64,000 nucleotides of DNA from sequence record PQ438048.1, one strand, 5' to 3'. Positions 30,401 through 30,982 of this stretch are shown one piece after another (within the stretch, counting starts at the first letter, position 1; each line of letters opens with the position of its first letter). Under the pieces are notes generated by a model. It had not been told where the DNA came from and made no database searches. It saw only the letters and a list, made by a program, of their open reading frames with translations. Source of the DNA: Escherichia phage MirsaeidiM_Esher1. A program made the translations under genes and the position numbers.

Positions 30401-30982
30401 ATGGCAGAACTGTTCTATACGGGAGTTGGAAGTAGAGACATATCCGAAGAAGAGTGGGCTTTGATGGTAGGCATAGGGAAATGGCTTTCAAACCTTGGGT
30501 TTAAATTAAGGTCTGGGAAGGCAGAGGGTAGTGATTCTGCTTTTGAAACAGGTGTCCAAGAGTCTGAAAATCCTACTAACAAGGAGATTTATGTTCCTTG
30601 GGAAAATTTCAAAGGTAATCAGATTCCAGGGGATGTTATTGTTCTTGCAAAACCAGATACAATGAACTATGCTATCTCTGTGCAATGGATCAAAGATGTT
30701 CACCCAGCCTATGAAAAGCTTAAGCAGGGTGCTAGAAAATTGCACCAACGTAATGTGCATCAAGTGTTAGGTAGAGATTTGGAGAATCCTGCTCCATCAT
30801 GTTTCTTGTTGGCTTGTGCTAATACTGATAAACATGGAGATGCAAAAGGTGGAACAGCTACGGCTTGGAAGATAGCTAAAGCCAATAATGTTCCTTGTTT
30901 AAACATTCGTGGGAAAACAAAACAAGAGATTTACGATTTTCTACGACCTTTGGTAATGAGGGCAATAACAAGTGATTCCTAA
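30401..30982 (+). CDS. DprA/Smf-like SLOG (Rossmann-like) domain protein
   Basis: YTGVGSRDIS...RSGKAEGSDSAFE...KGGTATAWKIAKANNVPCLNI resembles DprA core GSR...SGGAxGID...SGSL.TA..A...G (from memory). Confidence 0.4.
   Translation: MAELFYTGVGSRDISEEEWALMVGIGKWLSNLGFKLRSGKAEGSDSAFETGVQESENPTNKEIYVPWENFKGNQIPGDVIVLAKPDTMNYAISVQWIKDVHPAYEKLKQGARKLHQRNVHQVLGRDLENPAPSCFLLACANTDKHGDAKGGTATAWKIAKANNVPCLNIRGKTKQEIYDFLRPLVMRAITSDS

Follow-up and report, generated by a model that had tools for sequence, protein, structure and literature searches.

The described SLOG systems closest to the protein considered here include DprA, the DprA-like antitoxin ShosA and a phage anti-defence protein. In HpDprA, single-stranded DNA (ssDNA) is contacted by three arginines, R52, R143 and R170, and in ShosA the SAM domain is needed for stability while dimerisation and RecA binding are needed for activity (PMC12961424). 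Among phage proteins, a knockout screen found that ORF83 of Seuratvirus DruSM1, annotated 'Smf/DprA', inactivates type III AVAST/Avs (bioRxiv 10.1101/2024.04.14.589459). The EVADES preprint predicts that ORF83 binds AMP through R89, N90, T112 and D114 and reports no RecA-binding residues in it. More broadly, viral SLOG domains, which occur fused to Macro, NADAR and DUF4326 domains, have been predicted to act on host signals derived from ADP-ribose (ADPr) (Iyer et al. 2022, PMC9503650). Here we compare with these systems a SLOG gene of Escherichia phage MirsaeidiM_Esher1, located at 30401-30982 (+) within a 64,000-nucleotide stretch of DNA (PQ438048.1; hereafter the window). The comparison places its product in a distinct SLOG family outside DprA, for which we tentatively favour an ADPr-centred role in counter-defence.

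The gene is an open reading frame (ORF) of 193 amino acids (aa) that runs from an ATG at 30401 to a TAA at 30980-30982, as read from the ORF list and the sequence; the coding sequence of this stand-alone SLOG-domain protein, stop codon included, thus spans 30401..30982 on the + strand. Its product matches PHROG 768 end to end (E=2e-62). The source phage belongs to Phapecoctavirus; over positions 29000-33000 it shares 99.2-99.5% identity with phAPEC8, phAPEC8_ev052, tuntematon, ESCO13 and related E. coli myoviruses. Both the protein and its annotation were already catalogued before this analysis. Proteins 100% identical to it have been deposited from phages vB_EcoM_EP57 and Ro121c4YLVW, and the RefSeq equivalent, tuntematon gp220, whose surrounding DNA is 99.4% identical, bears the name 'DprA-like DNA recombination-mediator protein', a label that derives from PHROG 768. 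Members of PHROG 768/VOG4585, such as Phi92_gp047, tuntematon gp220 and Aeromonas phage 31 ORF049c, belong to the same family and show no structural difference from the protein described here, and models of PHROG 768 members in BFVD superpose at a TM-score of about 0.8. An alignment of 62 relatives with 37% mean column identity, on which all conservation statements below are based, contains 19 invariant positions; the gene is real and strongly constrained.

The protein can be placed securely in the SLOG superfamily. A Foldseek search of the Protein Data Bank (PDB) ranks HpDprA first (E about 1e-4), followed by ShosA, the Moco carrier protein (MCP), LOG and ThsA, and structure gives DprA no clear lead over MCP or LOG. 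By sequence, the nearest curated family is DprA, with sub-threshold matches to the Pfam model DNA_processg_A in 56 of the 62 relatives (best 2.6e-7). The 'SLOG cluster4' model is matched by 14 of the 62, and the Pfam models for LOG (Lysine_decarbox), YpsA and YAcAr are matched by none of them. A first-pass annotation made from the letters alone had proposed a DprA/SLOG-like Rossmann domain, quoting strings that we find at residues 6-15, 36-49 and 149-169 of the product. That proposal is backed by profile, fold and motif evidence, and profile and structure searches alike return support for the SLOG/DprA fold (PHROG 768, hhalign and Foldseek).

The likeness to DprA/Smf extends to the layout of the core, where the GSR, SGxAxGxD, RN and G-G/S-T/S motifs occur in the same order on the SLOG Rossmannoid fold. 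When aligned with E. coli Smf by hhalign, GVGSR (8-12) falls on VVGSR and SGKAEGSD (38-45) on SGLARGID, and motif mapping suggests that HQRN corresponds to the RRN of Smf FPRRNR. Two of the three HpDprA contact arginines, R52 and R143, correspond to the invariant R12 and, by that mapping, R117. These features, together with the order of the top Foldseek matches and the 56 weak DNA_processg_A matches, speak for a minimal DprA-type ssDNA binder that would coat or protect phage ssDNA intermediates and hand them over to a recombinase (host RecA, none being annotated here), a role suggested by Iyer et al. 2021. Genomic settings in DNA metabolism point the same way: the family lies with ligase and PcrA helicase genes in Nankokuvirus, with gp47 nearby in Aeromonas phage 31, and with a block of ligase, exonuclease and ribonucleotide reductase (RNR) genes in the present phage. 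Moreover, bacterial copies reside beside SRAP in elements resembling integrative and conjugative elements (ICEs), whose DNA enters as ssDNA, and one copy lies near a gene for the ssDNA-binding protein SSB (locus L090).

We nevertheless regard a DprA-type binder as doubtful, given that curated DprA models fail on this family. The protein missed the gathering score of Pfam PF02481 (DNA_processg_A) at 12.7 vs 29.6 bits and has no match in NCBIfam, where its relatives score 12.6-14.4 bits vs 191 for TIGR00732 (dprA). The hhalign probability against an enterobacterial DprA profile is 40-51%, a comparison limited by the low diversity of the set behind that profile (68% identity or more). The third ssDNA-contact arginine, HpDprA R170, is K157 in this protein and Asn in the family consensus, and the calculated pI is near neutral. 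There are further differences from DprA/Smf (PDB 3UQZ, 4LJK/4LJR and 3MAJ). The region from strand 3 to the RN helix differs from that of DprA and contains the family-specific conserved residues W67, H101, H115 and Q121, and the phage protein has neither a SAM nor a winged-helix domain. After strand 5 (166-168), a single helix (174-192) leads to the C-terminus, and the Smf segment PIGNPGSEGPHWLIKQGAxLV, which follows the last core strand, falls in an alignment gap without a phage counterpart. We take the corresponding segment of pneumococcal DprA to be its dimer and RecA-contact region. Because the DprA models fail, the middle region differs and the segment after the core strands is missing, we file the protein under a distinct SLOG family, assigned on sequence features to the YpsA/DprA-like clade with a GxD signature and placed outside the DprA family. 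The 'recombination mediator' label of the family was carried over from weak similarity to DprA, and its functional part is probably wrong.

Inspection of the 19 invariant positions indicates where the conserved surface of the family may lie. They comprise G10, R12, R37, G39, A41, G43, D45, W67, H115 and R117, followed by N118, Q121, G124, S133, G150, G151, T152, T154 and A159. The first motif (30422..30439, +), which contains GVGSR (residues 8-12), follows strand 1 and matches the G-S/T/A-R motif of DprA; G8, G10, S11 and R12 are invariant or nearly so, and hhalign to the Smf RF domain places R12 at HpDprA R52. The second, R37-S-G-K-A-E-G-S-D45 (30509..30535, +), occupies the loop after strand 2, aligns with Smf 142-149 and represents both the DprA motif SGxAxGID and the GxD/E signature described for the YpsA-like clade (PMC6459960). 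Directly after strand 3 lies P66-W67 (30596..30601, +), read from the alignment and the Smf consensus, with W67 invariant; this P-W motif is common to YAcAr SLOG proteins (P62-W63 in Seurat gp80) and is absent from DprA. Alignment and secondary structure place the third motif, H115-Q-R117-N118-V-H-Q121-V-L-G124 (30743..30772, +), in the helix before strand 4, and by motif comparison this block, which hhalign leaves unaligned, would be equivalent to FxxRNR of DprA and RK of LOG. The fourth, G150-G-T152-A-T154-A155 (30848..30865, +), forms the loop after strand 4 and includes the invariant G150, G151, T152 and T154. It corresponds to SGSLVT of DprA, with hhalign at low mact pairing GGTATA...VPCLNI with SGSLVT...VFALPG. 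The invariant positions thus appear to sit in the loops after strands 1, 2, 3 and 4 and in the RN helix, which by analogy is where SLOG domains bind nucleotides.

The fourth motif also bears on catalysis. In LOG phosphoribohydrolases, the signature PGGxGTxxE carries the catalytic glutamate, whereas in this family that position is occupied by the nearly invariant Ala155. Compared with LOG enzymes and MCP (PDB 5WQ3, 9US2 and 2IZ5), the phage protein lacks GGGxGxMG, PGGxGTxxE and the catalytic Glu and yields no hidden Markov model match. A LOG-type hydrolase was rejected on its motifs (GVGSR, KGGTATA and Ala155) and on the lack of a LOG Pfam match in the 62 relatives. A LOG-like nucleotide 5'-monophosphate phosphoribohydrolase, or some other nucleotide-pool enzyme serving phage metabolism, is improbable for the same reasons, and the fusions of the family point to ADPr processing rather than to pool metabolism.

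Domain fusions are in fact more telling for this family than neighbour counts. Of the 150 best family representatives, the 10 longest were scanned against Pfam, and four of these carry NADAR: P0140 and P0229 combine NADAR with SLOG, and P0121 and P0122 are polyvalent proteins. P0191 joins DUF4326 to SLOG, one of the 10 has a DUF7831 domain, one has an A1S_2505-type domain, and three have fusion partners of no recognised family. None of the 10 has a Pfam-recognised recombination domain fused to SLOG, and fusion to NADAR and DUF4326 instead weighs against a DprA-type binder. The polyvalent proteins P0121 and P0122 are GC-rich, 1475-1488 aa in length, and contain two copies of this SLOG, a YAcAr SLOG, LDcluster4 and a C-terminal NADAR; in P0121, the second SLOG copy has lost the GSR arginine (GFGAEN) and has GIT in place of GGT. 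P0121 (L090:8001-12467) lies among genes for ParB_N, an SNF2-like helicase, RadC, ArdC-N/MPTase-PolyVal and SSB, surroundings that are those of a typical conjugative-element anti-restriction region. For a further NADAR-SLOG gene, P0119, a DUF4326-NADAR gene lies two genes away and a gene for polynucleotide kinase-phosphatase (PNKP) is found further downstream. ADPr-linked fusions thus occur repeatedly in the family (P0140, P0229, P0119, P0191, P0121 and P0122), and the SLOG gene of the present phage stands alone.

Neighbouring genes were surveyed by clustering all ORFs within 5 kb of 81 viral loci, which represent 35 sequence groups. There is no obligatory partner gene, as no real neighbour occurs in more than 8 of the 35 groups. 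PhoH-like genes are the most frequent (7-8 groups) and all others occur in 5 or fewer, with RNR, HslV-like, NAMPT and PRPP synthetase in 5 groups each and Macro, NinI phosphatase, dCMP deaminase and HNH in 4 each. NADAR, DUF4326, Macro, NAMPT or PRPP synthetase genes lie within 5 kb in 17 of the 81 loci and 9 of the 35 groups, counts that have no background rate; in two loci a NADAR gene precedes the SLOG gene by about 1 kb, and in one a DUF4326 gene lies about 0.75 kb upstream. Across the same loci and groups, no recombinase was found as a conserved neighbour, and the family is spread over phages with unrelated recombination gene sets, both of which count against a DprA-type binder. Fusion and neighbour contexts agree with the prediction made for viral SLOG domains by Iyer et al. 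(PMC9503650) and argue against a dedicated RecA mediator. The first-pass annotation had offered a recombination mediator or a nucleotide-signal sponge or hydrolase as alternatives. The failed DprA models, the missing segment and the lack of a conserved recombinase neighbour weigh against its mediator branch. The nucleotide-signal branch gains contextual support only, from the NADAR/DUF4326 fusions, the polyvalent proteins and the Macro/NAMPT/NADAR neighbours. Its premise of a link between stand-alone phage SLOG domains and signal processing goes back to predictions (PMC9503650) and to one anti-Avs3 genetic result obtained in another SLOG family (bioRxiv 10.1101/2024.04.14.589459). The structural call of the annotation was right, and its hedged functional call was reasonable.

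Our preferred reading, which we hold tentatively, is that the protein serves counter-defence by binding, and probably cleaving, a nucleotide derived from ADPr or NAD. A single-domain SLOG protein would be made from the long rightward nucleotide/DNA-metabolism block of the phage and would act as an accessory factor against host defence. Its pocket, predicted to comprise R12, S38-G39, D45, W67, H101, H115, R117, N118, Q121, T152 and T154, would hold the phosphoribosyl part of a nucleotide derived from NAD+ or ADPr, be it a TIR-type signal resembling cyclic ADPr (cADPR) or another ADPr derivative. The ligand would then be neutralised, more likely by cleavage of the ribosyl N-glycosidic bond than by stoichiometric sequestration, and no RecA-loading mediator role would be involved. 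The fold, the motif set, the missing DprA-specific C-terminal segment and the fusion and neighbour contexts of relatives are observed, whereas we infer the ligand class, catalysis as opposed to binding, when the gene is expressed and a role in anti-defence. The SLOG domain of ThsA from type I Thoeris (PDB 7UXS) is a sensor of 3'cADPR; here, in contrast, no effector is fused, and sequence similarity to ThsA is undetectable.

Several observations weigh against ADPr-centred counter-defence. The literature searched yielded no biochemical or genetic data on any family member. The LOG catalytic Glu is Ala155 here, and therefore any hydrolysis needs other residues, with D45, E62, H101 and H115 as candidates; the data would fit a non-catalytic binder equally well. 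DprA is the nearest sequence family, if by sub-threshold matches, and two of the three ssDNA-contact arginines are invariant, so judged from these retained residues the protein may bind ssDNA. The NAD-salvage and Macro signal stems largely from contigs alike in size and gene order, possibly a single phage lineage. NADAR, Macro and NAMPT are not annotated in this phage. The tuntematon annotation (1-141,754 of 150,473) lists none of these three, and no RecA, UvsX, RecT, Erf or Sak recombinase and no SSB either; a tblastn search of the window found no NAD-salvage, Macro, NADAR or DUF4326 gene. One nearby gene, the only NAD-linked one found there, instead speaks for counter-defence, namely that of a Sir2-family protein (Pfam SIR2, E=1.4e-20) at 36005-36805 (+), 5 kb downstream and in a separate transcription unit; phage sirtuins are relatively uncommon (Iyer et al. 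2022, PMC9503650). Finally, NADAR removes ADPr from guanine in DNA (PMC11543638, PMC11825919), and because its substrates are ADP-ribosylated DNA bases, the fusions fit a DNA-directed role as well as one on a soluble ligand.

A DNA-directed role of this kind would involve ADP-ribosylated ssDNA, where the protein grips the modified nucleotide and either recruits a partner, for example NADAR, or removes or shields the base-linked ADPr on its own, in counter-defence against DarTG-type systems. Such an activity would reconcile the DprA-like ssDNA-contact residues with the NADAR fusions and neighbours. NADARs, phage ones included, remove guanine ADPr, and the NADAR of T4 counters DarTG1 (PMC11543638, PMC11125620, PMC11825919). 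T4 without AdfA and AdfN still resists DarTG2, so that further phage anti-DarT factors are expected. Settings of ssDNA entry also fit, namely the conjugative anti-restriction region with SSB and the ICE-like loci with SRAP, an ssDNA abasic-site protein, although SRAP and SSB are common mobile-element cargo. We consider action on ADP-ribosylated ssDNA unlikely, as its argument is inferential throughout, no acidic residue stands at the LOG catalytic position and no NADAR is annotated in this phage. To our knowledge, no SLOG domain acts on DNA adducts. If true, a SLOG domain would for the first time be shown to act on a nucleic-acid adduct, the family would form a new class of counter-defence enzyme, and the activity would explain the repeated fusion and linkage to NADAR, with the DarT2-type thymine adduct, irreversible by NADAR, as a candidate substrate.

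Returning to ADPr-centred counter-defence, a phage SLOG protein with an anti-defence activity allows a direct comparison. Seurat gp80, a protein of Escherichia phage Seurat (L006:4156-4548, 130 aa), has exactly R89, N90, T112 and D114, and because this residue numbering is identical we take it as the orthologue of ORF83. It belongs to Pfam YAcAr (PF10686; E=5e-18) and is annotated 'GTP-binding domain' despite this SLOG identity. Like the protein described here, gp80 is a stand-alone phage SLOG with parallel G-G-R, GxD, P-W, R-N and GGxGT motifs; it differs in its length of about 130 aa, in being without the 66-108 insertion and in carrying Asp (D114) where Thr154 stands here. PF10686 matches neither the 193-aa protein (E<=10) nor any of its 62 relatives (E<=0.1), the PHROG 768 profile has no match within the initial 50 kb of Seurat, and only 16 columns align when the family is compared with gp80 by hhalign. 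Membership in one family with DruSM1 ORF83 was rejected, given the missing profile match and the 16-column alignment, and for the same two reasons the anti-Avs3 result is not transferable. YAcAr is a sister SLOG family, and ORF83 still sets a precedent for stand-alone SLOG proteins of phages acting in anti-defence.

ShosA offers a second route to counter-defence. The phage protein shares the SLOG core and motifs with ShosA (PDB 8ZVA), which is also among the fold matches (8zva), and has a weak match to the PADLOC ShosA model (E=0.02, residues 9-47). Phage orphan antitoxin-like enzymes have precedent (PMC11825919), and an orphan-antitoxin mimic of ShosA might neutralise ShosT toxicity during infection in hosts with ShosTA defence. 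However, the PADLOC match spans 39 residues of the shared N-terminal motif only, and the SAM domain and the C-terminal extension of DprA/ShosA type are missing. On its architecture (a single domain, no SAM), such a mimic was considered unlikely, and overall we rate it very improbable. No phosphoribosyltransferase gene, the kind of gene that encodes ShosT, is annotated within 8 kb on either side of the SLOG gene.

The family itself is large. Relatives detected by tblastn occur in 1442 of 50,697 phage records, mostly from large virulent phages of Klebsiella, Pseudomonas, Escherichia, Aeromonas, Vibrio and Acinetobacter, with further members in N4-like roseophages and jumbo phages. An exhaustive profile search returned 5952 clusters at 50% identity with E<=1e-3, and 2002 at E<=1e-30; stand-alone proteins of 170-210 aa make up most of the 150 best representatives. 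Bacterial members, sought with 10 family sequences, come mainly from Sphingomonadaceae and are concentrated in Novosphingobium and Sphingobium (L091-L147; e.g. L106:3892-4611 and L133:7112-8464). These loci form a syntenic mobile element, read by us as ICE-like, that carries DUF736, DUF1173 and, some 2 kb upstream in the same orientation, a gene for an SOS-response-associated peptidase (SRAP). At one bacterial locus, the SLOG domain is contained in a 1338-aa ORF.

Within the window, the gene belongs to a rightward nucleotide/DNA-metabolism block with ligase, exonucleases, ThyX, RNR, dTDP-rhamnose genes, PhoH-like and HslV-like genes, methyltransferases and a NinI-like phosphatase. A Shine-Dalgarno-like GAGGTGA, read from the sequence at 30392..30398 (+), ends 2 nt before the ATG and shares bases with the stop codon of the preceding 102-aa ORF (30085-30393), an arrangement that suggests translational coupling of the two. 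The ORFs flanking the SLOG gene are lineage-specific and match no known family; for the overlapping downstream ORF of 170 aa, BLASTP gives E=4.6 with its counterpart in Pseudomonas phage Epa16. A consensus scan, the one source for both of the following features, places a strong bidirectional hairpin resembling an intrinsic terminator, with a 7-bp stem (5 GC) and a T-run at 32724..32741 (+; AACCCGCTTCGGCGGGTT) and a promoter-like site with TTGACA, a 17-nt spacer, TAAACT and an extended -10 TG at 32747-32775. The hairpin probably ends the transcription unit that holds the SLOG gene, and hairpin and promoter-like site together (32724-32775) form a unit boundary before the DUF7277/DUF7275 gene at 32806-33747.

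Three small tandem ORFs downstream of the SLOG gene, at 31737-31934, 32215-32433 and 32443-32715 (+; 65, 72 and 90 aa), appear to be paralogous, as each begins with a helix and finishes, right at the stop, in W-x-(P/S)-S-S-x(0-2)-C (NWHPSSLSC, VWHSSSC and VWISSSSMC), and W58, S61, S62 and C65 are invariant in their alignment. Upstream, at about 21000-23806, a complete dTDP-rhamnose pathway comprises a 4,6-dehydratase, a glucose-1-phosphate thymidylyltransferase, a 3,5-epimerase and a reductase, with coordinates derived by synteny from the 99.4% identical tuntematon record (offset +20999); glutaredoxin, lysozyme, PhoH-like and HslV-like genes come after it. A short ORF at 28415-29005 (+) is labelled 'histidyl tRNA synthetase' through PHROG 4806 (E=2.8e-64), as are tuntematon gp224, gp225 and gp083; this label looks artefactual because the proteins have 196 aa or less and occur in several genomic copies.

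These comparisons bear on a widely used label. Roughly 1400 sequenced phages, including therapy-relevant phages of Klebsiella, Pseudomonas, Acinetobacter and E. coli, are labelled as carrying a 'DprA-like recombination mediator'. The present analysis adds that the mediator label is unsupported by the defining features of DprA, that the family is distinct from the phage SLOG protein tested so far, and that its fusions point to ADPr-centred counter-defence; its contexts suggest that it travels with ADPr-processing domains and anti-restriction cargo. If the protein does counter NAD- or ADPr-based immunity, whether of Thoeris type, of DarT type or of the Avs type as for ORF83, a widespread anti-defence family would be added to those already described, and the family would become a useful predictor of phage host range.

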